From positions 1 to 64,000 of IMG/VR virus record IMGVR_UViG_3300031555_004349: a stretch of 64,000 bases of DNA, one strand, 5' to 3'. The DNA comes from a virus (taxonomy: Duplodnaviria; Caudoviricetes). The notes below the pieces were generated by a model. It saw only the letters and a program-made list of their open reading frames with translations, was not told the DNA's origin and ran no database searches. Shown here piece by piece: positions 458 to 64,000 of the stretch. Position numbers and translations under genes: made by a program. How positions within the stretch are numbered: the first letter of the stretch is position 1; each line of letters opens with the position of its first letter.

Positions 458-495
458 TTATGTAAACTCGCGCACGCTTGAATTAGTTTACATAA
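458..495. repeat. 11-bp inverted repeat TTATGTAAACT...AGTTTACATAA
   Basis: Arms 458-468 and 485-495; the same 11-mer recurs at 1362 and 1391. Confidence 0.7.
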
Positions 496-509
496 ATAAA
501 AGAACTTGA

Positions 510-692
510 TTATTTATCAAGTTCTTTTTTTAACATTTTTATTGCTATGTATCCAATTATTCCTATACCTAACAAATATCTTCCATTGTCTGCCATTAAC
601 CAATTAGCAACTGCTCCTAATAAATTTATAACTCCTAATATAACTCCTACTAATACAACTCCTACTAATACATTAACTAATAATTTTTTCAT
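510..692 (-). CDS. Small membrane protein (two hydrophobic segments)
   Basis: 60 aa with two hydrophobic stretches; purine-rich AAGGAAG upstream. Confidence 0.7.
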   Translation of the reverse strand: MKKLLVNVLVGVVLVGVILGVINLLGAVANWLMADNGRYLLGIGIIGYIAIKMLKKELDK

Positions 693-732
693 AATTTTTT
701 CTTCCTTTCCTTTTTTATTTTTTATCTAGGTG

Positions 733-1212
733 CTAAGCTACATTTAGCTTAGCAACCTTTTCTATTGTTCTCAATTGTGTCAAGCTAGCATTTTCATATT
801 TTACTTGTATCTTTTTTCTCTTTAAGTTTACATCTCCTGCTTTATCAAACCTTGTGCTATCTAGTTCATATGCTAAACCTCTTGCTTTTGCTGATAAGTA
901 TTCACATACTTGACCTTTGTTAAGTTCTAGTTCTTCTGCTTTTTCTTCTAGCTTTTGCTCGCTCATCACTATTTTGGCTTTTCCAGATAGTAACCACTCT
1001 TGTTTTTTTGCACTGCTTATTGATAATCTCAATTTTTCGTGCCCACCTTTTTTTGAACTTTCACGACCTAGTTTTACAATGTCCAAGCCTAGCTCTTTTA
1101 GTTCTATTTTGTAAATTGTATGCTTAAAATTAAAATATATTTCATAACAGTTGCAACCGTTTAGTTCTTCGTATTTTTCTAAATAAAATTTAATTTTTTC
1201 TTGTTCACTCAT
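733..1212 (-). CDS. Hypothetical protein, possible PD-(D/E)XK nuclease fold
   Basis: NKGQVCE...AGDVNLKRKKIQVK pattern; RBS and consensus promoter upstream. Confidence 0.55.
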   Translation of the reverse strand: MSEQEKIKFYLEKYEELNGCNCYEIYFNFKHTIYKIELKELGLDIVKLGRESSKKGGHEKLRLSISSAKKQEWLLSGKAKIVMSEQKLEEKAEELELNKGQVCEYLSAKARGLAYELDSTRFDKAGDVNLKRKKIQVKYENASLTQLRTIEKVAKLNVA

Positions 1213-1240
1213 TTTGTATCCCTTTCCTTTCTACACTCTA

Positions 1241-1269
1241 ATTATACTATATATTTTTTCCGTTGTCAA
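1241..1269 (-). promoter_or_regulatory. Consensus sigma70/sigmaA promoter (early type)
   Basis: TTGACA (1269-1264), 17 nt, TATAAT (1246-1241) on the minus strand. Confidence 0.85.
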
Positions 1270-1352
1270 CACTTTTTATACATTTTTTAAAAAATTTTTA
1301 ATTGTTAAAAAGACAAACTAAACGCAAGTTTTACCAAAAGACAAAATCGAAT

Positions 1353-1401
1353 TGTAACTCATTATGTAAACTAAATAAAAGTGTAACTGATTATGTAAAC
1401 T
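1353..1401 (+). repeat. 20-bp direct repeat TGTAACT(C/G)ATTATGTAAACT x2
   Basis: Copies at 1353-1372 and 1382-1401, one mismatch. Confidence 0.8.
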
Positions 1402-1412
1402 TCTTTGAAGTA

Positions 1413-1426
1413 CGAACATTTGTTCG
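1413..1426. promoter_or_regulatory. LexA (SOS/Cheo) box 1
   Basis: CGAACATTTGTTCG matches Firmicutes CGAAC-N4-GTTCG. Confidence 0.75.
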
Positions 1427-1489
1427 ATCGAAGGTCGATTTGATGAGTGTCTTTGTCTTTGTGGCAAGCTTCGTCCCGAGGGTCGCACC

Positions 1490-1503
1490 CGAACATCTGT
1501 TCT
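1490..1503. promoter_or_regulatory. LexA (SOS/Cheo) box 2
   Basis: CGAACATCTGTTCT, GAAC-N4-GTTC core intact. Confidence 0.7.
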
Positions 1504-1553
1504 CCGAACGCTTGTATGGGGCATAGTTTTGGGAAAGTTGTCAAAATGAAAAA

Positions 1554-1567
1554 CGAACGGGTGTTCG
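1554..1567. promoter_or_regulatory. LexA (SOS/Cheo) box 3
   Basis: CGAACGGGTGTTCG matches CGAAC-N4-GTTCG. Confidence 0.75.
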
Positions 1568-1572
1568 CCTGG

Positions 1573-1623
1573 AAACTACACCTATTTAATAATATTTTTT
1601 CAAAAACTACACCTATTTAATAA
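1573..1623 (+). repeat. Perfect 20-bp direct repeat AAACTACACCTATTTAATAA x2
   Basis: Copies at 1573-1592 and 1604-1623 (31-bp period), upstream of the rightward promoter. Confidence 0.85.
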
Positions 1624-3057: not shown

Positions 3058-3069
3058 GAGGAATACATT

Positions 3070-15277: not shown

Positions 15278-16096
15278 ATGGAAAACACACAAGACTATTT
15301 CGGATTAAAAGAATTACGTTCAGTTGTTATCCGCGCGAAAGGAGATATTACTATTGGTAATAGACACTTTGAAGACGGAGAGCCTGTACTTTATTTTGAA
15401 AAAGTTCAAATTAGTGAACTAAAAGAGGGGAAGAGTATTAAAGCTGCGCGTGGAGGTTTTCATAATTATCCTCACGTAGTTTGGGAAAGTTTTAATGATT
15501 TAAGCTTTCAAATGACAGAAGGCGTTTTGTCTAAAATGAGTTTCAGTATACTTTCTAGTGCTGAAATTTTTGATAAGGGAGAAGATGAGAAAGATATAAT
15601 TAAAGTTCCAAAGCGTGAAACATTAACTGTTTATAATGGAACAATTAAACCTTTACATGCTCCTTTAGAGGAAAAATTATTCGTTTATTTATTAGACGAT
15701 GATGGAATTATAACTGAGAAAATTAGTGAGTTTATATTGATTGATGGAACTATTGAGTTAGACGAGAAATATAATGATAAACAAGTAGTTGTTGATTATT
15801 ATTTCGAATATGCTAACAAATATTCTCAATATATATTAGGAAGTAAAAGAATTGACGGATTGCTTAGTCTTGAAGGTAAAGCATATTTTCAAGATGATAA
15901 ATATGGTCTTAAAAAGACGTTTTTATTTGAGATACCAAAAATGAAAATTACATCTAATTTGGATATAATAATGGGAGAAAAGGCAAGTCCGACAGTTTCG
16001 GTCTTTAGTATAATTGGTTTACCAATAAAGGAGAATAATCAGTGGGTGGTTTCAAAAATGAATTTACTTTCTGATGACATAGATAGTGATATATAA
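15278..16096 (+). CDS. Tail tube paralogue (minor tail protein)
   Basis: Shares FGLKE / PVLYF / ARGG motifs with 14430-15206. Confidence 0.65.
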   Translation: MENTQDYFGLKELRSVVIRAKGDITIGNRHFEDGEPVLYFEKVQISELKEGKSIKAARGGFHNYPHVVWESFNDLSFQMTEGVLSKMSFSILSSAEIFDKGEDEKDIIKVPKRETLTVYNGTIKPLHAPLEEKLFVYLLDDDGIITEKISEFILIDGTIELDEKYNDKQVVVDYYFEYANKYSQYILGSKRIDGLLSLEGKAYFQDDKYGLKKTFLFEIPKMKITSNLDIIMGEKASPTVSVFSIIGLPIKENNQWVVSKMNLLSDDIDSDI

Positions 16097-26500: not shown

Positions 26501-27198
26501 CAGCTAAAAGAGAATATTTAGAAAAAACTACTAAGTTATATGCTTGGATAGACAAAAAATATGCAGAAGAAGTTGCTCCAACTATTAATAGCGGTGCATC
26601 AAAAGTGGATACTCAATTACCAACAACAACTGGAAATGGAAACTCAAGCTCAAGTGCTGGTGGAAATGGACCTGGAAGTACAACTGCGGCAAAACCAGAT
26701 TTGAAAATTGGTTCAGTTGTATCTGTAAAACCTGGAACAAGATGGTATTACGACTCATATGGAAAAGACCCTTCTGGTGTAGCAACTGGTGGTGCAATTA
26801 AATATGTTAACTTAAAAGGTTCACATCCATACAATATTAAAGGTTTAGGATGGATTAAGAAATCAGATATTGTTGGATACAGTAAAGGTGGATATGTAGA
26901 TTATACTGGTGTAGCAAATGTTCACGGAACTGCGCGCGAACCTGAAGCATTCTTAAATGCAAAACAAACAAGATTATTTGAAATGTTAAGAGACGGTTTA
27001 ACAAAAACAACTTCAAATAGAACTTACGATAAAACTCCTAGCGAAGTTGCTAAGGAAGAATATAATATTGATAGTATCAATATTGAAGTTAAAGAACTTG
27101 CCGATACAGACTCTGTTGAAAAAATTACTCGTAAAGTTAAAGAAGAAATTTATAAAGACTCAACAGGAAGAAACAATATGGCAGTTAGAAGGAGGTAA
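17527..27198 (+). CDS. Tape measure protein (3223 aa)
   Basis: Long coiled coil; TP901-type TMP core around 19600-20600 (GTALKTI, ATAIAGTRQQSRF); C-terminal KGGYVDYTG...HG...PEA motif. Confidence 0.9.
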   Translation: MAKRNQVTTDLRISADAQLKTSRSFLNQLDKMIDKFDFGDKINNQLSNAKNQLKDYNKVLERVQTKSLISDKELKDLVKAGKEIANIITKTEKLYNNLSSSELQKFSKEYIKQVKAQEAQIAKIKESYTAKTGKNFDKELANYDKIKNKVKELQREKDNLAKTGANDIATKEVEQLNKKLEEQKNKLSEIRKLQKESAAAYTSTVETESQKRGYKNYAEVKNIKISSEDQIRRQLGTAEYKEQASLISTINREIKELEKTKEDANDLDREAISLAKQYKIENVSGLDTLKQQLKIKKDILNSYKGNKSALAAEKAVTAEMEKQKKQAEDIAAIESAGKQAELSVIQKGGYNSKASLSASASATNKSVNNLTGQLTEEGIENIVNNASLVIAQRIDKLTAEISKGNGDLAAIDETNKKLATQSERTADEQDIKQNGEKISNVVRDDGDITRNKNEAAINNLLEEFKAPDRSNNINLARESEAGKALEEAMTFVTAEGQLKQLWGSDKLIEGNQGIKRYLTMVEEMEDISFDFPETKKEFKSKMETVLDESYKKIFEGLEEAIVDIQIQIDNKTAEMNKKIDKDGNIKKSARRKGYNDEDYDKDQAKIESLQTDLSNFKTYKHDTEIEYSDEKNYLKNYSDELNKINIKTNTSTTLFKKHTDVVNKDSLALENAAYQSSFLASTFDDIKNKIGYFLSLNYVFDQMTRKISEAVQTTKEMDKDMTQIGLVLGKTSGQVWKNFDNYAKMAERLNTTTSQVTNSMKLFYQQGLNTSEVNKMVEASAIAAALGESTMADASETLTSIINSYSLSANEAMMVTDKISQIAIVSAADFGELSTAIEKVASSAASAGLDLDHMMGYLAKMIETTREAPTNVGTALKTIVANFTQFKEDPSGLAEEGSEINKVDKALKSVGISLTNTNGEVRDLGEVIDELGGKWGNLDRSQKAYLATAIAGTRQQSRFYALMNDYERTLELVSEGSNSAGKAQQQFALYSESLNAATEQLTNEWEKFFSQITSGNGVIKYFTNTLTSLMKVINEIGPIGTSLGLISFITQIRKGIINIEDFSKSIEILSTKQATREKMQHAFSIYSKNNTIDNRKKLLDVAQNEGLGKLNIKNINKALKITENQKQIQNLSKEIMVSSKFSEKFGKTVTKTGIQIKNGFLKGQVAVKAFAKSLATAGLQMMAIYLAGKAISFIVDAFDRASVSAEEFAEQAEKAAENAETLTSLRNEYEGLVNTIDRTTEEEERLKEITEEVSEVSAELGNNLSNNVDAFKANIDVMDEYIARQKQIAGTNAINAALKTAQENNGFWDKVGRWLSSGFASDDEREKSDISIAKGLYGEIDSGASQQHNLDSARQNILNTYANNLMKQLESSNKTADDWYEGLLDYKAKVTAMAENLANLSSVTLKVYSQLQTDFANKDLNYAELREKIENANIDETIKQGYRNSLNAARVGSIQTVQNRTGLDTTSATNIVDSLSRESLKQIFDPDNLDVLSEEEQKQYWESIVQIFNDENLKNQLIEAVAKNGIDGLQAFINNLDESSVAALDIVQDTISGLQTLAERVETAKTAFEKLSELMSSKILTGDFSQMDLISGLLDGTYNIQDIYSIGKGSTLGLSLDTIISQTEARFQELKKPFEEQTENLQKQIDYYNNFGDNLVNDATKKLEEQQKIVDQAQQEYDVAVNKTQKDNASYEKSEQDITNRGVIAGTIAGVVGGVISAIALPIGGIVTAGAATAIGANTDKQLQDLNNERTKVTAQNQTNENTKLQELKEQQAIYNEIKNELEQAQNIKIAMVMTDEQLLQKAKENVNTWIEQNKQTEKWVSVLDEQGNEVGKVNSEVYNKNLFTDKGISLKEAKELQKDNASLAEDNVKLYEDEAKVLRELGNEASQYAEDQVNAATDIQKGYKKTLTAIEKIQEKTLGYQKTYKAVFESFSSAGQIYNELEKVADAYELCDQGAKGYFDVAQAIANDPSLIEAIDMESKYLELNKEKVVELGKTKVQEQIDELKTKLKGTDAIIGLIKAQMAAGNDQVVAEAEYTDDKGECIAAALAYNEDLTKSEEESVETEGQNLEISVANWTNWQEAILQIMQRVEDQRAELAKRIASGETVAGSTSTAKLTGIKVNYKAQTSVSADEIEKTDKEKYDSLINTITSQNTDLSAMLESYQTQRAILEKSINSLQAYKKNMASNLADIAGTSGSKDEFDPIIEKLEKFYNYLRQLEELEARLNRLREKRNLIDATKNYYIDDLVKENDLLREQQSIYNDYIRDQGAYLNELKAQIQEQFGNWAYFNENGVIQVKQTEFTANSEDEEERLNTFLELVDLYENEYNTREENINKLYEIENTQLENISASYEKILTRVEDITDALNKQIDLLDHDMNMSFSNIGKFDIMDDQTLKAVEGIKTSQGYIKDFKEEIAGLNTEVKNGPFSELLLWDETLEHWRVNEEALQDESIVAKYEKMGYNWQEIDTYVRSVATESQALDEAMEGAVDSANEFAELLKTLIEDRIDTIKDFYSASTDEFNKIFDTFENKMTDIDNQNNLFGVASDSLEDKYLTLVTATVILKQTIQDLKANKDGILEQIQKEYPEYVKMINGVAVVNKQAIEESTGLTEDQRAHLLQLYGILEASEEQIDEMEDKLVDYFNTMLEMEEAKRDAIIDLKQQVHDELIARDQQEIDDLQEKYSKMSELDNEYYSELQRRVSDAREAREQRQESANIAQMQAQLSLMRADNSGAYNAEMIELQKQLNTALQTQADNDVTRELERIQREQQEREQDRQMTIQAMENVLTFKDENSWYWQEAQRIWDEGPESITGFLRTANEYSNISDEQRAVEFENLTNNMNTAFTTLQNEAGLSDRISDGVVSNASAEMQTKLEVINNNLNFIEQQLEGKIDWANSQNMQKLQDVINDTTTAMGENAASIKANMNTLYTQEVGPGFEGINQSIEDYLGANSQIWKKLDVSEGKIGTVDGTVRTGFEDTVKAVSEARDGIVNTLNTAKREYLEKTTKLYAWIDKKYAEEVAPTINSGASKVDTQLPTTTGNGNSSSSAGGNGPGSTTAAKPDLKIGSVVSVKPGTRWYYDSYGKDPSGVATGGAIKYVNLKGSHPYNIKGLGWIKKSDIVGYSKGGYVDYTGVANVHGTAREPEAFLNAKQTRLFEMLRDGLTKTTSNRTYDKTPSEVAKEEYNIDSINIEVKELADTDSVEKITRKVKEEIYKDSTGRNNMAVRRR

Positions 27199-43505: not shown

Positions 43506-44171
43506 TTACATCACCGTTAATTTGGCATATTTATCAATTGGAAAATCTGTATCATATTGAACATCTTTAAAAATTTCAGGCATTTCTTCTTTAAATTTTA
43601 ATAATAAAGGTATTAACACTTGTCTAATTGCTGGATGTGCCATCTTCGCGCATCTTAATTCCAATATATGTTTCCATTCTCTTATATTGGCTGTCATTGT
43701 AACTTCCGCAGCGGTTGAATGGGGTAATATCATTCTCATTTGGTCAGGTGTTGCGCCATTATTAGACATATGTATATAGTTCATTTCAACTCTATTCATT
43801 GTGTGTTCCCAAAATGCATATAGGTCTGAATCTTCATCTATATTACAAGGTTTAATAAATTTTATTTCATTTTCAAATTTATCTTTTCCATAATTACAAT
43901 ATCTTGTGCTTTCAATTGAAAAACTTCCAAATCTATGTCTCGTTAAATCTTTATATACTCCTACATCAACACACATGCGGATTGTTATCTTTTCATGTTC
44001 TAATACACTTTCATGCCCTCTATTAATACAATTTTTTAATAAAGTTTTATAGCTATCTTCTGTAATTAATCCCTCTGAGCGATAACAGGTTCTACACGCG
44101 CGTTCAATATTTTTCATTATTTTCTTACCGTCAAAATTTTCTACCTCTATCCAAGGTTCAATAATTTTCAT
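43506..44171 (-). CDS. thyX: FAD-dependent thymidylate synthase
   Basis: GHESVLEH and RHRFGSFSIESTRY ThyX motif. Confidence 0.93.
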   Translation of the reverse strand: MKIIEPWIEVENFDGKKIMKNIERACRTCYRSEGLITEDSYKTLLKNCINRGHESVLEHEKITIRMCVDVGVYKDLTRHRFGSFSIESTRYCNYGKDKFENEIKFIKPCNIDEDSDLYAFWEHTMNRVEMNYIHMSNNGATPDQMRMILPHSTAAEVTMTANIREWKHILELRCAKMAHPAIRQVLIPLLLKFKEEMPEIFKDVQYDTDFPIDKYAKLTVM

Positions 44172-45584: not shown

Positions 45585-46088
45585 TTATATATCTTTTAAA
45601 ATCATTGTTTGAAAATATTGTGAAGCTCTTATATCTATTATTCTTTGATTTGATGAACCTCTAAAAGCTAAGCTTAAATCTTTTTGTTCTTCTATAAAAG
45701 GCCCATCTACTAAAACATCTACTAAATTTATAATGTTCGCGCGAAGTGGGTCATTTACTAAAAACTCTGCTTTGTAGCCTGTCCATAGCCAAATTGTTTT
45801 ATCATAGTCAAATTTTTTTCTAAAAGCTGTAATTAAATCATAAATTCCATTTAGATTACAATTTTCAAGTGGGTCGCCACCTAATAAACTTAAACCTTCA
45901 CATTTATCATCTATACTATTTAAAATTTCTTCAATTGTTTCTTTTGTAAATTCTTGACCAAAGTTTGGGTCCCAGGCTTCTGAATTAAAACATCCTGGAC
46001 ATTGTCTGCTGCAGCCGCTAACAAATAACGATACTCTAACTCCTGGTCCATTTGCAAAGTCTCTTTTAATGATTTTGCTGTAATGCAT
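45585..46088 (-). CDS. nrdG: Anaerobic ribonucleotide reductase activase
   Basis: NGPGVRVSLFVSGCSRQCPGCFN radical-SAM motif; FRGSSNQR. Confidence 0.93.
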   Translation of the reverse strand: MHYSKIIKRDFANGPGVRVSLFVSGCSRQCPGCFNSEAWDPNFGQEFTKETIEEILNSIDDKCEGLSLLGGDPLENCNLNGIYDLITAFRKKFDYDKTIWLWTGYKAEFLVNDPLRANIINLVDVLVDGPFIEEQKDLSLAFRGSSNQRIIDIRASQYFQTMILKDI

Positions 46089-49003: not shown

Positions 49004-50041
49004 TTAGTCCTCCTTATTAATAATTCTACGAAACCACTTTTTGTATTCAGGTTTCTTTTCTAAAAAATTACGATAATATTTTATAACTTCAGGATGATAT
49101 TTATTGTCTACTAAAAATATCCCTTCGTAAGTAAAATCATTATATTTACCTTCCCTAAACCATCTTTCAAAAGAATAATAAACTGCTTTTGTTAAAGGTT
49201 TTTTTGAATAAAGCAATATATCTGCACCTGTAAAAGTAATATTTATTTTACTTAATAGCAATGCTTTTTGTACGGTTGGTATTAATTCTTTTAAATAAAA
49301 GTCTTCTGTATATAAATTATCTTTATTATAACCAATACTAAAATAAAGACGTTTTTCCATTTTCTTTAAAATTTCAGTATTGTTTGTAATTAATTGCTCA
49401 AACTCCTCATATGTGCTAGTTAAAATAACCCCATATAAGTTTACAAAATTAAATTGTAACAAATAATTAAAATCTTCTAAATTCTGTTGATTTCTAATTA
49501 TTACTGGACGCGCAAAGCAAATACTTCTTTCATATATTGAAATTTTTTTGAAATACTCGCGCCAGTTTTCTTTATCAAAAAAATCATTATCTACAATTAC
49601 TTTTCTATCTGGTATTAAAACTTTATAAATATCTATTGGTTTTTCATTTGGATAAAGTCTTAACCATTTAGCTCTTTTGATTTTTTCAATATCTTTTTCT
49701 GTATAAATATTACTATAAAAATAATATTTTAATAAATTATCATAAATCCTATAATTAGTTTCTTGTTCGTCTATTTCATTTCCAAAAGGAACAAATTTTC
49801 TATTGTTGTAGTAAGTTCCATAAAAATCAATATTAGGATGTTTTAGGAAACTCTCAATTGGTAAGTGTGAGTTACAAAATATACAAAGTTTATCATAATC
49901 ATAAATATAGCTTTTAGGATGTAGAACTTCAACTTGGTGTCCAAGTTCTTCATAATAAACACCAAGTTTCATTAATTCTACATTTAATATTTTAGAATTT
50001 GGTTGTATTAATAAATCTATATCTACTAAACCTATTTTCAT
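49004..50041 (-). CDS. Hypothetical protein, possibly a degenerate radical-SAM-family relative
   Basis: MKIGLVDID...NVELMKL...GHQVE N-terminus; no CxxxCxxC. Confidence 0.5.
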   Translation of the reverse strand: MKIGLVDIDLLIQPNSKILNVELMKLGVYYEELGHQVEVLHPKSYIYDYDKLCIFCNSHLPIESFLKHPNIDFYGTYYNNRKFVPFGNEIDEQETNYRIYDNLLKYYFYSNIYTEKDIEKIKRAKWLRLYPNEKPIDIYKVLIPDRKVIVDNDFFDKENWREYFKKISIYERSICFARPVIIRNQQNLEDFNYLLQFNFVNLYGVILTSTYEEFEQLITNNTEILKKMEKRLYFSIGYNKDNLYTEDFYLKELIPTVQKALLLSKINITFTGADILLYSKKPLTKAVYYSFERWFREGKYNDFTYEGIFLVDNKYHPEVIKYYRNFLEKKPEYKKWFRRIINKED

Positions 50042-52177
50042 TCTGCTCTTTCTCCCGCAACCTCTATTATTCCATTTTCATCAATTGAAGTTATTAATTC
50101 AATTGGAAATTCAAATAAACCATTTTTATAAACTTTTGGTACAAAATTGTCTCCTCTTCGAATTCCACTCAACATTAATTTATTTCCTCTTTTAAACCAA
50201 GAACGTTCTATTATAGTTTTCTTTCCAGTTAATTCATTTTTAACTGAAATTTGTTTATCATACTTACTGAATTGCGCTCTATATATTTTTACTCCAACTA
50301 CTCCATCATCTGTTAATAAAGTTACTAAATTTTTAGTTTTATTTTTATCTATAACTGTACCACAAATTCTAGTCAATTTAAATATAGGAATTTCTTTTCC
50401 ATCTTTTGTAGTCCATACTTTATCTATTATAGGTTCTTCAGCCAAATTATTATAATTACTTATACCATATCTTTCTTTATCAATATGTGCAAGTTCATGA
50501 GCATTATGATAGAAACATACACTATCCATTTCCCATTTACTAATATTTCCGCTCGCATATTTATTCCATATTTCTTCAAAAAGTTTATTATTTAAATCCT
50601 CTAAAATTGCTGGATTTTCTTTTATTTCAACTTTAACAGGTTCCATTTCTTTTTTATAAATTTTATCCCAAGTTGTTTGACCAATTACAAATTCACCTTT
50701 TTCATTTTGCTTAATTAAATCCATATCATATTTCTTTTCATAAAAAGTTAAAGCGCGTTCATCTAAAACATAATTAACTGAGTCTTTAAAATTTTTTAAA
50801 TACTTATTAAAGTTATAAACATGAACTTCGTTTTTATATTCTTCTGGAATACAATTATTTTTTATTAACATAGCCATATTTTGTAAAGTTAATCTTTGTT
50901 TTTTATCGCTAATTTTATCTATATAATTTCTCATTATTTCTTCGCGCGATTTCTTTTCAACCTTATCAAAACATCCAGCTTTTATTAAATTAATCATAGA
51001 TACTTTATTAGTTTTTACTTTACTCATAAAATCATCTATTCCAGTATAAGGTCTATTATCTATAATACTTTTTGCTAAATCATTATTAATTCTATTTATA
51101 CCTTTAATACCAAAAATGATTGTATTACTTTCAATATCGGGAGTGAAAGTAAATTCAGATTTATTTATATCTGGTAATTCAACACTAATTCCAAGCGCCA
51201 TCATTTTACCAATTGCTGAAGCTATTTTACCATAGTTAACAGTTTTATTTTGTTTCTTGACTTCTTCTTTTTCTTCTTTTGTCATATCTTCATCTAAGTC
51301 ATCATCTTCATTTATGTCTTCTTCGTCATTATTTTCAGTTACTGGGTCAAAATCTTCTATTAAATTTACAAACTCATCGTTCTCATCTATGCCAGCACTA
51401 TCTACTATTAAGTTTGCACAGTTCCAAAATATCGAAGGGTAATGATAAGCTAAATTCATTTCTTGTAAAGCTATTAGTGAATAACCGAAAGCATGCAACA
51501 TAGAGAAAGAATATCCTAACTGTCTTTTTACTTGTATATTCCAAACATAATTTAATAAGTTATCTGAAGTACCTTGTTCGCGTCCTCTTTTCATAAACAT
51601 GTCGTGCATACTATCAATTTCTGCAAGTTTTTTCTTTGCAATTGTTTTTCTCAATTTATTAGCTTCTTTTACACTAAATCCGCTAATTTTTTCATCCATT
51701 GAAATTAACATTATTCCTTCCTGACTTTCGCACACACCAGAGTTTGCTAACAAGTGTTTTTCCATAATTTTTATTTCTTCTTCTGTCAAACCATATCTTT
51801 TCATTTCATTATACCAAAGTTGTATATTATTTTTATACCTTGTAAAAGTCTCAGAAGGCATAACGCCACTTTCGTCTGCCATCAGCCTCATTAATGAGTT
51901 AGCAATAGCTAATTGCATTGTGTTAGTTGGTTTTATTTGTTTAGCCGTTGCTAAACCTACTGGAGTATCATATTGGAATAAGTTACTTATTTTATTTTCA
52001 CCAATTTCATTCCACATATCTTTTGTATCATAATCTAAATTACTTAAACCAACATATTTTTCATAAGTTTCTTTTAAACCATCTTCCCACTCTATATATC
52101 CATATTTTAATAATAAATCTAAACAAGTTCTAATTCTATCAAGTGCATCAGTTGTTAAAGCATCAAATTTAACCCCG
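50038..52177 (-). CDS. dnaE: DNA polymerase III alpha, C-terminal part (reached by +1 frameshift or assembly indel)
   Basis: GGVKFDAL (third catalytic Asp region), LFQY, YSFSMLHA, LPDINKS, C-terminal OB-like region; no credible RBS at ORF-track start 52227. Confidence 0.85.
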
Positions 52178-54079
52178 CCCCATATATTCGCTATCGTGTA
52201 ATTCAAATTGACTACACAAAGTTCCATTTGGCGCTTTCATAACTGCATTATGGTTACAAAAATCTTCATTAACAATTAACATTCCACATGCGTGTAAACC
52301 TCTACGACATATTGTTCCTTCTACTTTTTGAGCAACTTCCCAAATGTCAGGATATTGGTTCATTGCGCTAATAAATTGTGGAATGGGATTAAATTCCTTT
52401 TCTTCATCTCCATAATAACATTGATTTAAAGTTCTAACTTTACCTCTATCAATTGGTACTAAAGATGAGATATATAAACCTAAATCACTGTCGTAACCTA
52501 ATCCTCTTGCCGCAGTTTGTAATGCCGCTTTTGAAGTTTCTGTTCCAAAAGTTGCTATATTATAAACCTCTCCTCCAATACTTTCAAAATATTGTTTAAG
52601 TGCAGCTGTAACTCTTGGTCTTTTAGAAGCTTGGAAGTCTGTATCAACATCAGGAAGTTCAGGTCTATCTCTATGAATAAAACGCCAATACATATTTTCA
52701 ATTCCATATTTAATTGGGTCCATTTGAGTAATTCCTAATAAATAATTACTTACAAATCCTCCCGCAGAACCTCTTGAAACACCAACTAAACTGTCACCTT
52801 CGTTCCACATAATATCTACAACTTTTGCCATTGTGTTAAAATATGCCGAAAGGTCATTTCCAATTTTTTGAGTGATTTCCCAAATTTCAGCTACTTCTTT
52901 TTCAATTTGGTCTATATATTGTTCCCACTTATCTTTGCTTATTTTTTGTTCCAATCCTGCAAAAATACCGTTAATATAATACTTATCTTGCTCACTCTCC
53001 GAACTTAAAAATTTATTAATATATTCTTTTGTTTTTGCATAATTATATATTTCTGAACTATAACTAAATTCTTTTTCTAATTTAATTTTTGGAACTATTT
53101 CTTTATGATATAAACTATATTCTTCAATTAAAGAAGCTACATGATTTGTATTATCCAACATCCACTGTATATCTTCTTCTTTTATATTTGTCATATAACC
53201 TTTTATGTCATCTTCACTTTGTAAATAAGTTCCTGAATAAAACGCATCTGTTTCTCTATCTCCTTCACCAGCATTTAAATATGCTTTATGTAAAGGTCTA
53301 TCTTCTCTTCTTAAATAATGTGCGTCAGTTGTAATAATTGCTCTAATACCTCTCGCTTTTGCATAAGCAAGTGCGCAAGCATTATAAATATTTTGGTCAT
53401 CACTTTCAGATGATTGCAACTCAATAAAGAAATTTTCTTTCCCAAATTGTTTTTGACACCATTGAACAAAATTATCTATTCTGTCTCTAATTTCTTTTGA
53501 TTGTTTTTTATCTAAATATTCTCTAATCAAATTGGCAAATTCTGAACCTAAACAAGCTGTGCTACCAATAACATGTCCTGGATTACTACCAATTATTTCT
53601 TCTATATCTTTATAGTAAGTTGGAACTCTTTCTATAAATTGTCTAAATGAGTGAGACCACGCGCGAGAACTTAACTCTCTCAATTGTTTATGTCCTTCTT
53701 CATCTTTTGCTAACAAAATAAAGTGATAATATTTATCTTGTCCTTTTACATAATTGGCTTTAGTTAAATTATTTCTAGTTAAATAAATTTCATTTCCTAA
53801 AACTAATTTAAAATTATTCCAATAGTTCAATTCATTTTCAAGAAGTTTCCTCTTATCTTCATTTTCTTCTTTCTCATATTTATCCTTATATTTTTGGCGT
53901 AAACCATTAATATGCTGAATAGCCTTAATATGACCACTTAAACTTTCGTGGTCAGTTATGGCTACTCCTGTCATATTTAATTCTCTACATCTTTCAAATA
54001 ATAAAGGAAGTTGGTTAATTGAGTCTAACATACGAATATTACTATAATCAGTGTGTGTATGTAAGTTAATATAACTCAT
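52169..54079 (-). CDS. dnaE: DNA polymerase III alpha, N-terminal part (PHP + palm)
   Basis: HTHTDYS, AITDHE, TTDAHY, RGSAGG, PDVDTDF; stops at HDSEYMGRG*. Confidence 0.9.
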   Translation of the reverse strand: MSYINLHTHTDYSNIRMLDSINQLPLLFERCRELNMTGVAITDHESLSGHIKAIQHINGLRQKYKDKYEKEENEDKRKLLENELNYWNNFKLVLGNEIYLTRNNLTKANYVKGQDKYYHFILLAKDEEGHKQLRELSSRAWSHSFRQFIERVPTYYKDIEEIIGSNPGHVIGSTACLGSEFANLIREYLDKKQSKEIRDRIDNFVQWCQKQFGKENFFIELQSSESDDQNIYNACALAYAKARGIRAIITTDAHYLRREDRPLHKAYLNAGEGDRETDAFYSGTYLQSEDDIKGYMTNIKEEDIQWMLDNTNHVASLIEEYSLYHKEIVPKIKLEKEFSYSSEIYNYAKTKEYINKFLSSESEQDKYYINGIFAGLEQKISKDKWEQYIDQIEKEVAEIWEITQKIGNDLSAYFNTMAKVVDIMWNEGDSLVGVSRGSAGGFVSNYLLGITQMDPIKYGIENMYWRFIHRDRPELPDVDTDFQASKRPRVTAALKQYFESIGGEVYNIATFGTETSKAALQTAARGLGYDSDLGLYISSLVPIDRGKVRTLNQCYYGDEEKEFNPIPQFISAMNQYPDIWEVAQKVEGTICRRGLHACGMLIVNEDFCNHNAVMKAPNGTLCSQFELHDSEYMGRG

Positions 54080-54754: not shown

Positions 54755-56470
54755 CTAAAACTCATAAGTCGTATCATGAATTTCATAATTTTCAATAAAA
54801 ATTTGAGGTGTTACATTTCCCATAAATTCATTTAAGTTTGCTCTTCCTAAAATAGTAACATTCATAGTTTGATTTTTAGTTAATTTTTCTAAAAGACTTT
54901 CATCTTTAAATTTAATGTAAGTAATTCCATTAACTGTAAATTTTACTGTATCTTTGTTAGCACCAATTGCTTGAACACTACTTTTTGCTAAATGAAGATT
55001 TTCAATTGCAATTAGTGGTTCTTCCATACCTTGTCCCCATATTTCGTTTAACTCTCCTAAAGTTACAATTATGTCTTGTAAATATGGATTTTCTCCGTCT
55101 ACAATTAAATCTACTTCATACACATTTTCATTAAAGTCTACATCTTTTAATTCTTCATCAGCATAATTTAAGAAGGTTTCTAACTTATTTTTTGGAATTG
55201 ATACACCGTGTGCATTAGCGTGCCCAGTAGCATATTCAAAATATCCACTATCCATAAAAAATTGTCTTAAGTCAGGAATTGGTCCGTGATTAACTCCACG
55301 CGCACTTCCTCTTAAATATCCATCTGAATTTTCTCTTACTACACAAACTGGTTTTTTATATTTTGTAACCAATTGCATAGCTACTAATCCAGTTAAAGTA
55401 TTATCGAATTCGTCATCATCTTCTACTTCAACTATAATTATTTTATGTTGGTCTAATTCTAATTTTTGTATTTTAAAGTCTAAATTTTCATAAACTTTTA
55501 ATTTCATTCTATCTTGTCTATTTTTCGCATTAGTACAAATACGAACTGCTTGACCACAAACTGTTTCTGTATCTCCTGGTTTGTGTCCTCTTTTAGTGCT
55601 TGGTACTATTTCATTAGGTTCTATAAAAGCTCTAAATAAAGTTTCTTTTTCTTCTTGTGTTCCAACTCTGATTAAAGCATTTATTAATGGAACTATATAA
55701 AATGCTATTCCCGTTGGAGTAACTTTATTACCCATAGAATATGCTTGCTTTTCTACCATAGCCATTAAACCTAAATTTGTTATATTATTTATACCAGTAT
55801 TAACAATATATCTTGTTTCTAAATCACAAAGCTCCATCATATCTCCAACCATTCCAATGGCTGTTAAATCTATTAAAGAATTTGCATATTTAGTACCCAA
55901 AATATTATCTAAGCAACAACAAAATTTATATGTTACTCCAGCACCACAAAGCGATTTATTTGGATAGTTTAATGATAATTGATTATTTACTACAATCGCA
56001 TCTTGACTATAACCTAAATCAGATTCGTGGTGGTCTAAAACAACTACATCTATTCCTTTTTCGTGTAAAATTTTATGCTGCTCATAATCGTTGGAACTTG
56101 AGTCCGGTGCTATTACTAGTTGTACATCATCTGGTATTGTATCTACTATTAAACCGTGTTGTTTACCTTCGTGTACGCGCCAAACAATCTCTATGTTTGG
56201 GTTAATTTTTTTAATATATAAATAAATTATTGCTGCAGATGTATATCCATCTGTATCACTATCAATTTGTATAAAGATTTTACTATTATTTTTTATATGT
56301 TTTAATAGACAATTTGCGGCCGTTACTATATTGTCCAATAACATAAAATCATAAAGCTCTTTTTCAGAAGGAGCTAAAAACAAATTTAAATCTTTAATAT
56401 GTCTTTCTTTTAAAAAGTTTTGTAAAAAATTATTGTCTGCTACTAATTCTGTTTTTTGTTTATAAATCAT
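54755..56470 (-). CDS. recJ: RecJ-like ssDNA exonuclease (DHH family)
   Basis: DSDTDG, LDHHE, LCGAGV, GSARG, GHANAHG. Confidence 0.88.
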   Translation of the reverse strand: MIYKQKTELVADNNFLQNFLKERHIKDLNLFLAPSEKELYDFMLLDNIVTAANCLLKHIKNNSKIFIQIDSDTDGYTSAAIIYLYIKKINPNIEIVWRVHEGKQHGLIVDTIPDDVQLVIAPDSSSNDYEQHKILHEKGIDVVVLDHHESDLGYSQDAIVVNNQLSLNYPNKSLCGAGVTYKFCCCLDNILGTKYANSLIDLTAIGMVGDMMELCDLETRYIVNTGINNITNLGLMAMVEKQAYSMGNKVTPTGIAFYIVPLINALIRVGTQEEKETLFRAFIEPNEIVPSTKRGHKPGDTETVCGQAVRICTNAKNRQDRMKLKVYENLDFKIQKLELDQHKIIIVEVEDDDEFDNTLTGLVAMQLVTKYKKPVCVVRENSDGYLRGSARGVNHGPIPDLRQFFMDSGYFEYATGHANAHGVSIPKNKLETFLNYADEELKDVDFNENVYEVDLIVDGENPYLQDIIVTLGELNEIWGQGMEEPLIAIENLHLAKSSVQAIGANKDTVKFTVNGITYIKFKDESLLEKLTKNQTMNVTILGRANLNEFMGNVTPQIFIENYEIHDTTYEF

Positions 56471-57542
56471 TTTCTGCTTTCACCTGTACCTTACTCATCA
56501 TTATTTTTTCAAAAATCTCCTTTCCTCTATCTATTGGCGCATCCTTTATGCTCAATAAACCTTTAAAATCAAATAAGAAATAAAAATTACAATAATTTAT
56601 ATATTTCCTACAAATTTTTTCTAATTTGTAATAATAATCTCTAGCTTCCTGTGAAGCGAAATTATCAAATTCTTTATCGTAAGCTATAATAATATCTTTT
56701 ACTCCTAATTCTTTTACTAACAATTCAACTTGTCTATAATTTAAAGAGCTTCCACAACTTGCAACAGATATATTATAATCATACATTTCTTCAAATTTTA
56801 AAACACTTTTTTCGCCTTCAAAAATTATCGCTGTTTGATATTTTTTAATATCTTCTTTATTTTGATAAAGTCCATATAAATTAAAGGATAATGGATGTCT
56901 ATATAAAATGTTTTCAACTCTCAAAGGCATGTATTTTCCATAAAGCTGTTCTTCTTCAGGCTCAAGAGCTCTTCCCCTTATTCCTATCAATCTTCCATCA
57001 ATATCATAATGAGGTATAACAATTTTGTTTCTATAAATATAATGACTAATTTCAAACTTACTCATTGATTTTTCAGTTATGCCTTCTCGCGCCCACTCTA
57101 CCGTTAAATATGGACAAAATAATTCTAAAACTGTTTTATCATATTCTTGTAAAATAATTTCTTCATTTTCTTTTTTAGAGTCTATATTACTAATGTATTT
57201 TTCCTCAGTGGTGTCGCTAAAAATGTTGTACGCCGCGAGGTCAGCAATTGAATATACGACTTCATAAAAATTATAAGGCTGATGATTAACTTCTTTTACT
57301 CTTTTTATTAAATCAAAGATATCAAAGTTTTCGCTACATTCTGTATAACAATGAAACATATGACTATCTTTATAATAATATAGTTTCATAGAAGCATCTT
57401 GGTCTAATGGATTATGACAGATTGTAGGAAATATAATTGTATTTCCTTTATCTTCATAATTATCTGCGCCCAAATGAGTCATTATACTTATAATATGTTG
57501 TTCTGTTAAACTTTCTCTTAATTCCTGTAAATTAATTTTCAT
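56460..57542 (-). CDS. DNA primase
   Basis: CHN...CYTEC zinc finger; GIRGR; TOPRIM IFEGEKS...AYDKE. Confidence 0.85.
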   Translation of the reverse strand: MKINLQELRESLTEQHIISIMTHLGADNYEDKGNTIIFPTICHNPLDQDASMKLYYYKDSHMFHCYTECSENFDIFDLIKRVKEVNHQPYNFYEVVYSIADLAAYNIFSDTTEEKYISNIDSKKENEEIILQEYDKTVLELFCPYLTVEWAREGITEKSMSKFEISHYIYRNKIVIPHYDIDGRLIGIRGRALEPEEEQLYGKYMPLRVENILYRHPLSFNLYGLYQNKEDIKKYQTAIIFEGEKSVLKFEEMYDYNISVASCGSSLNYRQVELLVKELGVKDIIIAYDKEFDNFASQEARDYYYKLEKICRKYINYCNFYFLFDFKGLLSIKDAPIDRGKEIFEKIMMSKVQVKAENDL

Positions 57543-57543: not shown

Positions 57544-59178
57544 TTATATTAAATCCGCCAAAGAAACTTTTTTCTCAACTGTTCTTTCTTTTAATTCTTT
57601 AATTTCTTTGCTTTCTTCCTTTCTTTCAGATTGCAATTGTGATTGATTAATTATGCTTCCCATTTCATCACTAAATAAATATTCATTTGTAACTATACTA
57701 ATTTCATTTCCATTTTGGTCAGTTAAAAATAAATCTTCAGTTCTACAAGTTCCTAAATCTACTTTACTCCAAATTCTTACTCTATTATATTTTCCTCTAC
57801 GAACTTTATACAAATCTTGAACCTGTGTTGGTAAATCTTTTCCTAATTTTCTTGCAATTGCATCTACCTGTTCGTGGTCTTCTTGTGTTAAGGGTAAACT
57901 AATTCCACCAACATCTATTTTATCTGCAATAGCTTTTGAACCACGAATTAAATTATAATCTCTTATACCTTTATATTCTTTCCATTTTTCATTCAATTGA
58001 GTACCACTCATCATGAAAATATTAAGTTCATTTGCTAAATCTTTTAATGCTATACTTGTCATCATGAGAATAACATCTTCTCTTAAATTTAAATCTTTAT
58101 ATTCTGCAAGTAAACCTGGACTACTAAAAATATAATCATAAAAAACATATTGAATTCCATATTTTAATACTTCTCTTCTAATTAATGTTTTTATTTGTCC
58201 AATTGATGGGTCTCCAACCCTAACAAAAATAAAATTGTCTTGATAATGTTCAATTATTTTAATTGCATCATAAACGCGCTGTTTTTCCGCAGGTGACTCA
58301 TAATAATTATTTAAAATCTTATCTTCATTTACTCCTGAAATATGAGCTAAAATCATTGTTTGTATTTCTTCTTTTTCCATCTCAGTTGCAAAAAATAATA
58401 TTTTATGTCCTTCTCCTGTTACAACCCATTTATTTTTCTTTGTATCATATCGTTCTGGAAAAGCAATTGTACATGCGTGTCCAACCATCTGTCTAGTTTT
58501 ACCAGTTCCTGAAGCACCACTAATTAAATAATATTTTTTTAATCTAGCGCCTCTAACTAAAGTATTATAAATTTCACCTTGTAAAGGTATACCAATTTCG
58601 GGATTTTGCTGTAAATTTTCAAATAATTTATCTGTTCCAGTTGCAATTAATCCTTCTTCACTATCGTCTTTACAAATATAATCGTATTGTAAATCGTTAA
58701 TACCTTTTAGAAAAGTGTCAAAAATGTCTTGTAAAGTCATTTTGTCTAAATTTTCTTGTTGCTTTTTATCTTTAACAACATCTAATTCATTTTCATTATA
58801 AATTTTTGTTATATCAAAACCATCTTTTTTAAGTGCGCGAAGAGCACTTAATTTTTTTAAACGATTATAATAATAATTAAAACCGTCTAAGTTACTAACT
58901 GCTAAACAATCTTGTAAATATTGAGGTCCTCCCGCACGCTTATAAGTTTCATAACTTCCATCGAATTGTTGAAAGAAGTTATCAATATCTACAACTGAAA
59001 TATTCTCCATTAAATGATTTTCAAATAAATTTGAAATTGCCATATAAATATTTTTAGCCAATGGTAAATCAAAATCATTTTTCGTAATGATATATTTTGT
59101 GTCGGCTAATAAAATAGGAGATTTTAACAAGCAGCCTATTACTTGCATCATTGCATTCTTATCGCTAAGACTTGCCAA
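57544..59178 (-). CDS. DnaB-like replicative helicase
   Basis: SGASGTGKT, FATEM, FYDYI, GTQLN, RGSKAIADKID. Confidence 0.88.
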   Translation of the reverse strand: MASLSDKNAMMQVIGCLLKSPILLADTKYIITKNDFDLPLAKNIYMAISNLFENHLMENISVVDIDNFFQQFDGSYETYKRAGGPQYLQDCLAVSNLDGFNYYYNRLKKLSALRALKKDGFDITKIYNENELDVVKDKKQQENLDKMTLQDIFDTFLKGINDLQYDYICKDDSEEGLIATGTDKLFENLQQNPEIGIPLQGEIYNTLVRGARLKKYYLISGASGTGKTRQMVGHACTIAFPERYDTKKNKWVVTGEGHKILFFATEMEKEEIQTMILAHISGVNEDKILNNYYESPAEKQRVYDAIKIIEHYQDNFIFVRVGDPSIGQIKTLIRREVLKYGIQYVFYDYIFSSPGLLAEYKDLNLREDVILMMTSIALKDLANELNIFMMSGTQLNEKWKEYKGIRDYNLIRGSKAIADKIDVGGISLPLTQEDHEQVDAIARKLGKDLPTQVQDLYKVRRGKYNRVRIWSKVDLGTCRTEDLFLTDQNGNEISIVTNEYLFSDEMGSIINQSQLQSERKEESKEIKELKERTVEKKVSLADLI

Positions 59179-61705: not shown

Positions 61706-61776
61706 TATTTTTCAATCCTCCAAAATACTTTAATAATTTAATTTTAACCTTTAACTATTATTAGAAATAAAGTGCC

Positions 61777-61813
61777 AAAAAGGAACTTGATTAATTTACT
61801 AATCAAATTCCTT
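61777..61813 (-). terminator. Probable terminator
   Basis: Minus strand AGGAATTTGATTA...TAATCAAGTTCCT followed by TTTT. Confidence 0.6.
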
Positions 61814-61837
61814 ATTTGGAATTATTTATATTATAAA

Positions 61838-62128
61838 TTATTCTGCTTCTACAACAGCGTCTGGGTCGAAACTATATCCAGCTTCTGTTAAGCTGATTAA
61901 TTTGATTTCTTTTTCAATATCGTTTCCATTTTTGTCTTTTGCTGGAACTACAGCTACTTCTCTCATAGCTAATCCTTTTTTACACATTCCTGTTACAGAA
62001 CCTGTAACTGCTGGAGATGTAACTCCTGCTGCTTCAGCTAATTCAGCTGTTTGCCATTTTTTTCCTTCTGCATAGTGTGCTTTTAATGTTTCTAATACTT
62101 TTCTTGAACCTTCTGTCATTTTTGCCAT
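61838..62128 (-). CDS. Winged HTH DNA-binding protein (LexA N-terminal-domain-like)
   Basis: TAELAEAAGVTSPAVTGSVTGMCKKGL HTH; own promoter and terminator; optimal codons. Confidence 0.7.
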   Translation of the reverse strand: MAKMTEGSRKVLETLKAHYAEGKKWQTAELAEAAGVTSPAVTGSVTGMCKKGLAMREVAVVPAKDKNGNDIEKEIKLISLTEAGYSFDPDAVVEAE

Positions 62129-62200
62129 TTTAAAAATCCTCCATAAATTTAAATATATTTTTTTTATTTTAACTCCGAGAGTTTTTCTCTCTTCATTTTC

Positions 62201-62238
62201 TATAATATAATTATAACATTTTTTTAGAAAAAAATCAA
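62201..62238 (-). promoter_or_regulatory. Promoter with conserved 18-bp core (copy 4)
   Basis: TTGATT-17-TATAAT containing TGTTATAATTATATTATA. Confidence 0.75.
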
Positions 62239-62258
62239 ATATTTTCTTTCAAAATTTT

Positions 62259-64000
62259 CTAATTTTCAAGCAAAATCGCATTTTTAACTAAGTTAGTATT
62301 GGTTACTTTTATCATTTGAACACCAATAGTCATACGACTTTGTGATGGAATAGTGTCTACTTTTAATTTTAATGAAGATAGTTTAGAATTTACTATAATT
62401 GTATCACTCTTTTTATTAGTTAATACAACACTTGCAACATAGTCATCTTCTTCTTTGAATTTACAAATTGAACTTCCTTTTGTTGCACGATTTGCTATAG
62501 AAAATTCTTTTATTGAAGTTCTTTTTCCATAACCTTTTGCCGTAATTGAAACCACTTCTTCAATACTATTATTAACAATTTCCATTGCAATAACTTCATT
62601 ACCTTCTGAAAGTCCTATTCCTTTAACTCCCATTGTATTTCTTCCAGTTGTAGGAAAATCTGCTTGGTCTAATAATAAACAATTTCCTAACTTTGTTGCT
62701 AAAAATATTTTATCATCTTCGCGCTCAATTAATTGTGTACTCACTAATTCATCATCTTCACGTACTTTTAAAGCAATTAATCCAGTTTTTCTACTTCCAT
62801 TTAAATATTCTCTCATTTCCGTTTTCTTAACTGTACCATTTTTGGTTGCAAAAATTACATATTTATAATGTTTTGCATTATCATAAGATAAAATATTTGT
62901 AACATATTCATTATTTTTCAAAGCTAAAAGTTGATTGATATAAGTTTCTTCATTAAGTGGAATATCAGCTAGCGAAATATTGTAGCTTTTTCCAAAGTTT
63001 GTAAACACCAAAACTTGTTCAGTTGTTTTTCCTACAATTGTTTTCCAGATATAATCTGTTTTACTTGCAAATTTAATTTTAGCACCTATCGTACCTCTTT
63101 TTTGAGTAGATAACTCACTAATTTCTTTTGCAACAATTGCGCCTCTATTAGAAATATAAGCAATAATAGCTTTTTCTTCTACAATTGGAGCTTCTTCGCT
63201 AACATTATCGATTATAGTTCTTCTGTCGTCTCCATATTTTTTACTTACTTCTAATAAATTATTTTCCATTACTTGTAAAAATTCTTTTTCGTTTGTTAAC
63301 AACAAATTATAATGCTCAATTTCTTCTTCAAGTTTTTCTTTCTCTTGTTGTATTTTTGCTATTTCCATATTAACTAAACGATTTAATTTTAAATCTAAAA
63401 TAGCTTTTGCTTGTCTTTCTGAAAAACCATAATTATTCATAAGAGCAATACAAGCTGCGGCTGAATTTGGTTGACTCTTAATTAAAGCAACTATTTCATC
63501 GATAATTGATAACGCTTTTAAGTAACCTTCTACAATTTCTAATCTAGCTTTTGCTTTATTTAAATCAAATATAATTTTATTTCTTAAAACTTTTTTACTA
63601 TGTGCTAGATATTCTAATAGAGCTTCTTTTAAACCAAAAATTTGTGGTATTTTACCATCTTTTAGCATAACCATATTTATACTAAAATAAGATTGTAAAG
63701 CAGTATTTTTGTATAAAAAGTCTTTTACTTTACCAAAGTTGGCATTGTTATCAACTGTAATTTTAATTAATGGTTGAGTTCCTGTTAAGTCTAAAAACTT
63801 TACTATACCACATTCGGGATTTGCTTCCATAGCTTCAGTTAATTGTTTACAAATCGTATTTGTGTATACACCATAAGGCAATTCTGTAACAACTAATTGA
63901 TTGTTTTGGAAATCACTTTCTATTTTTGCTCTAATTTTAATAGAAGTTCCAGTACCGTTTTTAATTGACTCTTTAATTTCTTCTCCATTAATTATTGTTG
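62259..64000 (-). CDS. gyrA: DNA gyrase/topoisomerase IIA subunit A, partial (5' end outside window)
   Basis: VTELPY, QAKAILDLKL, YGDDRRT, GyrA-box-like QKRGTIG, beta-pinwheel repeats; frame open to the window edge. Confidence 0.88.
   Translation of the reverse strand, partial: TIINGEEIKESIKNGTGTSIKIRAKIESDFQNNQLVVTELPYGVYTNTICKQLTEAMEANPECGIVKFLDLTGTQPLIKITVDNNANFGKVKDFLYKNTALQSYFSINMVMLKDGKIPQIFGLKEALLEYLAHSKKVLRNKIIFDLNKAKARLEIVEGYLKALSIIDEIVALIKSQPNSAAACIALMNNYGFSERQAKAILDLKLNRLVNMEIAKIQQEKEKLEEEIEHYNLLLTNEKEFLQVMENNLLEVSKKYGDDRRTIIDNVSEEAPIVEEKAIIAYISNRGAIVAKEISELSTQKRGTIGAKIKFASKTDYIWKTIVGKTTEQVLVFTNFGKSYNISLADIPLNEETYINQLLALKNNEYVTNILSYDNAKHYKYVIFATKNGTVKKTEMREYLNGSRKTGLIALKVREDDELVSTQLIEREDDKIFLATKLGNCLLLDQADFPTTGRNTMGVKGIGLSEGNEVIAMEIVNNSIEEVVSITAKGYGKRTSIKEFSIANRATKGSSICKFKEEDDYVASVVLTNKKSDTIIVNSKLSSLKLKVDTIPSQSRMTIGVQMIKVTNTNLVKNAILLEN

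Follow-up and report, generated by a model that had tools for sequence, protein, structure and literature searches.

The DNA analysed here, referred to as the window, comprises the first 64,000 nucleotides (64 kb) of IMG/VR record IMGVR_UViG_3300031555_004349, a phage of the Caudoviricetes that is found in animal gut and faecal metagenomes. The complete record has a length of 118,133 bp, shows a terminal overlap and contains 30.2% GC; for the window we measured 30.1% GC, instead of the about 28% given in a preliminary description of the sequence. The subject of this study is the pentamer GCGCG, together with its complement CGCGC, which is a genuine DNA-level word of the SPbeta-like gut phage lineage to which this phage belongs. 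The SPbeta-like character of the structural module is apparent from YonG, YonD, YonB, YomX, YomW, YomV and YomU domains seen in relatives. Identity of the terminase to those of cultured phages is 43% at best, and a megablast search against cultured phages gave no match. For replication and recombination the phage carries a split DnaE, a DnaB-like helicase, a DnaG-like primase, a RecJ-like nuclease, an AAA_24 ATPase and RuvC. Other DNA enzymes are GyrA, GyrB, an ATP-dependent ligase and RNase H, and nucleotide metabolism is represented by NrdD, NrdG, ThyX, SHMT (serine hydroxymethyltransferase) and dUTPase.

An over-represented GC-only pentamer

Dispersed CGCG loci were counted between positions 469 and 62724 of the window. 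The preliminary description had reported about 59 of them, about 54 extending to a pentamer; our recount gave 61 loci, 56 of which read GCGCG, CGCGC or longer, which corresponds to approximately one per kb in coding and non-coding DNA. Counted with overlaps, CGCG occurs 74 times, GCGCG 35 times and CGCGC 39 times, while an order-0 model predicts about 5 and an order-1 model about 3 copies of each 5-mer. In the whole 118-kb genome there are 121 CGCG loci, of which 108 extend, and the site density is 1.16 per kb. CGCGCG sites include the perfect palindrome TTCGCGCGAA, which is present at both places where it had been described (34306–34315 and 45736–45745). Runs of GCGCGCG lie on the plus strand at 26932–26938, within a gene for a 3223-aa tail protein (ACT GCG CGC GAA), and at 31718–31724 (TGG CGC GCG AAA).

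The excess was assessed against a synonymous shuffle that retains every protein and its codon usage. Shuffling the 42 coding sequences (CDS) of the window gave 4.9 ± 2.2 GCGCG and 4.6 ± 1.9 CGCGC, compared to 43 and 27 observed. Across the genome, shuffled within each of 99 CDS, 65 GCGCG were observed versus 9.0 expected (z 18) and 42 CGCGC versus 8.4 (z 12). The same shuffle showed an excess of CGCG (107 vs 39), GCGCGA (37 vs 3.5) and GCGC (189 vs 65), the abundance of the latter having been noticed before. A stricter null, in which synonymous codons are exchanged only where the flanking bases are identical, preserves the protein as well as all dinucleotide counts. Under this null, GCGCG (65 vs 13.8 ± 2.8), CGCGC (42 vs 11.9 ± 3.0) and CGCGCG (17 vs 1.7) are still in excess, the 5-mers by 3.5- to 5-fold, so that the signal survives the protein-preserving check that had been proposed for it. 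Words of the GCGCG type head the over-representation among all 4- to 6-mers. The only other strong word, GACC, is high as a side effect of the avoidance of GATC, which is treated below. As stated in the preliminary description, all three reading frames are involved, each being enriched 4.6- to 9.4-fold, and the density is no lower in non-coding DNA, where 19 kb contain 30 sites. In literature searches, no account of GCGCG enrichment in phages was found.

To describe the enriched unit, fold values over the protein-preserving shuffle were compared. They rise with the length of the alternating run: A/T-flanked GCGC is enriched only 1.2- to 2.2-fold, the 5-mers 5- to 7-fold and CGCGCG 16.5-fold. 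Bare CGCG is unenriched (9 vs 22.9), a depletion that is perhaps inflated because the null reuses the codons of the motif itself. Flanks contribute little; the consensus is T-S-GCGCG-A (S is G or C) and the usual form is (G/C)GCGCG between A/T. Other words consisting of G and C only are unenriched (GGCC 0.63, CCGG 0.93, GGGG 0.82). Runs of S of at least 5 bp are in excess (81 vs 14.4), and a general clustering of GC runs was rejected since most of this excess carries GCGCG. The word also makes use of codons that are otherwise rare, as had been claimed. The arginine codon CGC, which makes up 5% of Arg codons, mainly serves the word, a G coming next after 40 of its 55 copies, and 89 of the 192 GCG codons lie inside GCGC. 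The phage has 21 tRNA genes (at 87.6–100 kb and 111.4–112.9 kb of the genome), none of them for Arg, and its tRNA-Ala is UGC only.

The pentamers occur in both orientations. The preference of GCGCGA(A) for the coding strand given in the preliminary description turned out to be weak, with 56.9% of sites in sense orientation versus 53.8% in the null (z approximately 1.5; 327:248, three phages pooled). The fold enrichment of the two orientations is 7.3 and 5.6 in this phage, 4.9 and 4.8 in the relative found in the genome G001 and 2.9 and 2.6 in that of G011, and the plus strand of the genome holds 61 GCGCG and 76 CGCGC. That the coding-strand form flips with the arm of the genome is mostly due to the G>C skew of the sense strand and to the A-rich flanks. 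Spacing of the sites is Poisson-like, with a coefficient of variation (CV) of 0.90–1.26; regular spacing, or selection for coverage, was rejected as this value is not under Poisson. RNA hairpins formed by pairs of GCGCG and CGCGC were likewise rejected, with 9 spacings below 100 nt compared to 9.3 expected.

The shape of the unit bears on a physical role, in which short CG blocks would influence melting, supercoiling or packaging as GC clamps or as Z-prone elements. Alternating CG stacks most stably and is a classic Z-former, the enrichment is uniform and independent of orientation and position, and a part in supercoiling would agree with GyrA and GyrB being encoded by the phage. However, runs of 5–7 bp are short for Z-DNA, the remaining GC-only words are not enriched and equally AT-rich, gyrase-bearing relatives lack the trait, and we regard a physical role as improbable.

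Some gaps and repeats of the genome are described here for completeness. The longest stretch free of GCGCG measures 6.4 kb (genome 71263–77640) and corresponds to a cassette of DUF285/leucine-rich-repeat (LRR) and tail-fibre-repeat genes, mostly without homologues in relatives. Several intergenic GCGCG-type sites are part of longer repeats (genome 114572, 115412 and 117656; 108821/108849; 109653/109678). Repeated intergenic words include CGCGCCGG, near LexA-like boxes, and CTTCTCGCGCAAGTT, which occurs twice. Intergenic sites within such longer repeats may be regulatory and separate from the dispersed set.

Candidate hosts, restriction avoidance, Chi and methylation

Close relatives of the phage are contained in two metagenome-assembled genomes, G001 ('uncultured Mollicutes') and G002 ('uncultured Clostridium sp.'). 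Of the 49 genomes of the G001 family and the 301 of the G002 family, only one each carries a close relative. A comparison with the predicted host had been suggested, and in these candidate hosts the excess is absent. The genes of G001 (222 kb) equal their own synonymous-shuffle null (GCGC 128 vs 132, GCGCG 18 vs 18.5), and the chromosome contigs of G002 hold 0–3 copies of each 5-mer per 20 kb. G019, a member of the G001 family with an AddAB-like pair, has 9 sites without skew on a 313-kb single-replichore contig. Among 41 genomes of the G001 family, GCGCGAA did not exceed its reversed control, save in G001, where the phage contig is included and the excess is modest. With hosts linked by binning, the density of 1.16 sites per kb in the phage compares to 0.03–0.13 per kb in candidate hosts, and the word is 10–35 times denser in phage than in candidate-host DNA. 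Among the genomes compared, the enrichment is thus restricted to the phage lineage. Host-wide codon-pair bias was rejected for the candidate hosts, given that G001, G002, G019 and the 41 family genomes are without the excess.

The relative in G001 is part of a 181-kb contig (G001:C1, L029-L037), where it spans approximately 10–127 kb and is joined to a second, distantly related SPbeta-like phage region at approximately 127–181 kb. This second region carries genes for a terminase (36%), a tape measure protein, CHAP and Mtd_N; it contains a single site in 50 kb, and its GATC content is normal. The left flank consists of tRNAs and short ORFs (open reading frames) only. The contig represents either tandem prophages or a chimeric assembly. 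Integration of the relative in the host chromosome, which was first suggested by the flanks, was set aside as unproven because the right flank is the second phage.

The composition of the phage shows strong avoidance of palindromes. GATC is absent from the CDS, where about 175 copies are expected, and its sole occurrence in the 118-kb genome is at 1426–1429, inside TTCGATCGAA. Close relatives, with terminases 77–95% identical, likewise lack GATC. Other palindromes are depleted as well (CATG 0.42, ACGT 0.45, TCGA 0.62, CTAG 0.68). The near-total loss of GATC is a companion composition signal of restriction avoidance. GCGCG might accordingly be thought a by-product of a host-like codon-pair bias or of avoiding GATC, CATG, ACGT and TCGA restriction sites, since avoidance is strong and the rise of GACC shows that it can be compensated by another word. 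This explanation is scarcely credible. The excess survives the dinucleotide-preserving null and is found in every frame and in non-coding DNA, and the genes of the candidate host G001 are at their own null. Moreover, Lactococcus phage 949 avoids GATC equally, yet contains 0 GCGCG in 50 kb. Both forms of the by-product explanation were therefore excluded. Sampled contigs of G002 (L105-L123) are also strongly depleted of GATC, with 0–22 copies per contig, mostly 3–9, versus 29–50 expected.

The preliminary description had pointed to Chi of Lactococcus lactis, GCGCGTG, and to mimicry of Chi as one origin of the signal. All of its GCGCGTG positions were found again, at 15446 and 24843 and, as the complement, at 44095, 53658 and 55297. 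In the Chi explanation, GCGCG would be the Chi site of a host AddAB/RexAB, which the phage hoards to tame the nuclease or to recruit recombination, in the manner of Chi-rich lambdoid phages and P1. Chi of Lactococcus and Streptococcus is GCGCGTG (PMC5959072), which shares the GCGCG core and occurs in low-GC Bacilli. The density is also similar to that of Chi-rich phages, such as LLS and P1, which carry one site per 1.9 kb (PMC12315714), and AddAB-like pairs occur in the G001 family and in G002. Of 26 genomes examined in this family, 11 gave a PDDEXK_1 match over the cut-off, several of them beside an AddAB-like ORF pair. G002 has AddA and AddB, while G001 has no AddA above the cut-off and no PDDEXK_1.

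However, none of the candidate hosts over-represents the word, neither G001 nor G002 with its AddAB nor G019 with its AddAB-like pair, and the sites lack orientation polarity, in contrast to ratios of 20:3 in phage LLS and 32:0 in MD8. Like the phage studied here, the Chi-rich phages LLS (of E. coli), P1 and MD8 (of Pseudomonas) (Zheng et al. 2025, PMC12315714; Bobay et al. 2013, PMC3784561) pile up a short G/C-rich word to about one copy per 1–2 kb. In their case the word is the Chi of the host, is abundant in the host chromosome and strongly oriented, and no Rec module is present. Here, candidate hosts are without the word, orientation is symmetric and RecJ, AAA_24 and RuvC genes are encoded by the phage itself. 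The heptamer GCGCGTG is rare, at only 7 copies in the 118-kb genome; unlike it, the enriched word continues mostly with A after GCGCG. The distantly related Lactococcus phage 949 is devoid of GCGCGTG and shows avoidance of both GCGC and CGCG. Taken together, the word is neither frequent nor over-represented in candidate hosts, AddAB carriers included, and shows no polarity, so that Chi mimicry is unlikely to be its origin.

A second origin considered in the preliminary description was a palindrome driven by methylation and repair. A cytosine methylase acting on GCGC together with a T:G mismatch endonuclease (HIP1-like, VSR-like) would turn near-cognate sequences into the cognate word. The core GCGC is a classic site of C5 methylases, and recent site differences between relatives are CpG transitions. 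In cyanobacteria, the highly iterated palindrome HIP1 (GCGATCGC) is reported to be tied to methylases (Elhai 2015, PMC4390886), and this link speaks for such a drive. HIP1 resembles the word described here in being a hyper-abundant GC-rich word that runs through coding DNA; it differs in being an 8-bp palindrome that is spread across the host genome and tied to orphan methylases. In the phage, no C5, N4 or N6 methylase and no Vsr was found, PF00145, PF01555 and PF03852 being unmatched, so the search of the rest of the genome for a methyltransferase that had been called for gave none; G001 and G002 are without a match to PF00145. The neighbours that are one transition away (GTGCG, GCGTG, GCACG, CACGC, CGTGC and CGCAC) are at 0.75–1.25 of the null, and a VSR-type depletion of neighbours was therefore rejected. 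In addition, the enriched unit is an asymmetric 5-mer, A/T-flanked GCGC being raised only slightly, and the genomes of the candidate hosts show no excess. A methylation/repair drive is thus very improbable.

Site turnover among related phages

The excess is common to close relatives. In eight of them, with terminases 77–95% identical, the ratio over an order-1 model is 6–18. Deeper in the terminase tree, a sister clade retains the trait with a ratio of 3.5–9.6, and G011 reaches 4.6 GCGCG-type sites per kb on a 116.7-kb contig (G011:C6, L078-L083) of 36–42% GC. On this contig the words GCCGC/GCGGC and CGGCG/CGCCG are in approximately 2-fold excess as well. G009 and G010 do not show the trait, nor does a clade that was binned with Oscillospiraceae. 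In G012 (G012:C1, L091-L096), which avoids GCGC and CGCG altogether, the trait is reversed: there are 0 GCGCG/CGCGC in 120 kb, and 0 GCGC and 0 CGCG in the 18.7-kb locus L028. This opposite extreme presumably reflects restriction avoidance. Among the cultured comparators Enterococcus H1, Phass-1 and Lactococcus 949, the trait was not found. The trait spans a deep clade of uncultured 100–130-kb gut phages. Sister phages range from 4.6 sites per kb down to none in 120 kb, a spread that lends itself directly to comparative work.

Within this clade, the positions of the sites turn over. Five genomes were aligned over 14 kb at 72–80% nucleotide identity; of the 50 site clusters, 35 are confined to a single genome, and sites are retained about as often as expected under neutral decay. 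The sole site retained in all five relatives is a GCGCGTG on the plus strand at 15446–15452. At many of the other positions, the orthologous alternatives are synonymous or conservative recodings, such as TTG CGC GAx against TTA AGA GAx. At the sites, a pair of phages with 96.8% identity differs by single CpG transitions, in one case by two transitions; multi-nucleotide templated events were rejected on this ground. ORFs without homologues in relatives carry 0.51 sites per kb compared to 1.1. This half density fits an accumulation of sites during residence in the lineage.

These data also bear on a non-adaptive explanation, namely a context-dependent mutation or repair bias particular to the replication of these phages that builds alternating CG runs. 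It would account for the rise of the fold value with run length (GCGC approximately 1.7-fold, the 5-mer approximately 6-fold, CGCGCG as given above), for Poisson spacing with unconserved positions and for the lower site number in ORFs without homologues. On the other hand, the same DnaE, primase and helicase are encoded by relatives whose site numbers are neutral or zero, the orthologous alternatives often involve transversions and Lys/Arg replacement, and bare CGCG is not enriched. Generic slippage is out as other dinucleotide repeats are unenriched: (XY)n repeats other than CG are at 0.6–2.0, compared to 5–16 for CG. We consider a mutation bias of this kind rather unlikely.

The relatives also differ in their genetic code. 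The phage reads cleanly in code 11, while many related terminases (L010, L011, L013, L014, L017 and others) hold 5–11 in-frame TAG codons, which suggests, as judged from these sequences, that such relatives are TAG-recoded in a manner like code 15. TAG recoding among the relatives does not follow the GCGCG trait.

A proposed dispersed recognition site and its possible readers

In phage genomics, signals in short words are mostly avoidance that stems from restriction sites, and positive accumulation has so far been linked to host Chi. Here, a GC-only pentamer accumulates in a 70% AT genome at the price of rare codons that lack a phage tRNA, and the candidate hosts are without it. With RNA pairing, slippage and host bias rejected and Chi and HIP/VSR unsupported, what would remain is a force particular to this phage lineage that promotes just this pentamer at any place that admits it. 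The inference of the preliminary description stands in one part, that of a signal at the DNA level which runs through the genes in every frame and costs rare codons; its options of Chi mimicry and of methylation/repair are not supported. Its third option, a binding site for a phage protein, is the one of the three that we favour.

We tentatively propose that GCGCG is a dispersed recognition or identity site that is kept in the phage lineage by weak selection on each site and is read by a putative phage-encoded factor. This reading is possible, though short of probable. It supposes that selection rather than mutation bias maintains the word and that the reader is encoded by the phage. The force would act on the number of sites and not on their positions, holding about one site per kb. 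Sites would arise through synonymous or conservative codon changes, among them TTA AGA GAx to TTG CGC GAx, to xGC GCG, or replacement of Lys with Arg, and would be lost by ordinary CpG transitions. The putative reader would be a phage factor of DNA transactions that works in either orientation. Candidates are the replisome, with the word as primase start site, the recombination and nuclease machinery, or a protein that organises the DNA. Should a reader encoded by the phage exist, the word would represent a new class of genome-wide phage signal, and would provide a sequence marker for the lineage as well as a way into the marking or organisation of DNA in large phages.

Several observations weigh against this reading. 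Sites are not conserved above neutrality, for which reason selection is inseparable from biased mutation or repair in these data. The spacing is not below Poisson in its CV, so that this sign of a regulated coverage is absent. DnaE, primase, DnaB, RecJ, AAA_24, gyrase and RuvC are also found in the neutral G009, G007 and G010, and core replication and recombination genes are present in the site-free G012. When gene presence and absence was compared with eight relatives, no gene tracked the trait and no candidate reader emerged. G001 and G002 are candidate hosts whose links to the phages consist of bin membership only. For the primase in particular, homologues with 40–46% identity occur in the neutral or site-free G007, G009, G010 and G012, and an alignment of the primase zinc fingers showed no obvious split, the zinc finger being conserved in groups with and without the trait.

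The DnaG-like primase is encoded on the minus strand at 56460–57542, and the helicase at 57544–59178. The primase has Toprim and DnaG_N matches and a conserved Cys/His motif at the N-terminus that resembles a zinc finger, and is considered here as a candidate reader by inference. T7-type primases recognize the pentamers GGGTC, TGGTC and GTGTC. By analogy with these, the idea of a primase site is attractive in form, in that a pentamer would be needed about every kb with its position being irrelevant, the phage has a zinc-finger DnaG-like primase and GCGCG would template a GC-only primer. No lagging-strand bias is seen, and G012 lacks GCGCG while having a homologous primase. The idea is weakened because site-free relatives retain such a primase. 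To our knowledge, a genome-wide enrichment of primase pentamers is not known for T7.

A parallel of another kind is provided by the DNA uptake sequences (DUS) of Neisseria and the uptake signal sequences (USS) of Haemophilus, which are 9–12 bp long, occur in competent bacteria and are driven by biased uptake and recombination. They resemble the GCGCG word in a density of approximately one copy per kb, in occurring in either orientation and in every frame, in genome-wide distribution and in positions that turn over. They differ in that the word here is a 5- to 6-mer in a phage with no known uptake step. A more speculative extension of the recognition-site reading is that GCGCG serves as a private 'self' tag, a counterpart of Chi or of an uptake sequence that is owned by the phage and separates phage from host DNA; we give this little weight. 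A phage nuclease/helicase, replisome or packaging factor would then spare tagged DNA while host DNA is degraded, and related phages might gain or lose the system as the GCGC/CGCG restriction enzymes of their hosts permit.

Finally, the polymerase of the replisome was found to be divided. The DnaE-type polymerase lies on the minus strand at 50038–54079 of the window as two overlapping ORFs of 729 and 636 aa, and both halves are kept in all relatives.

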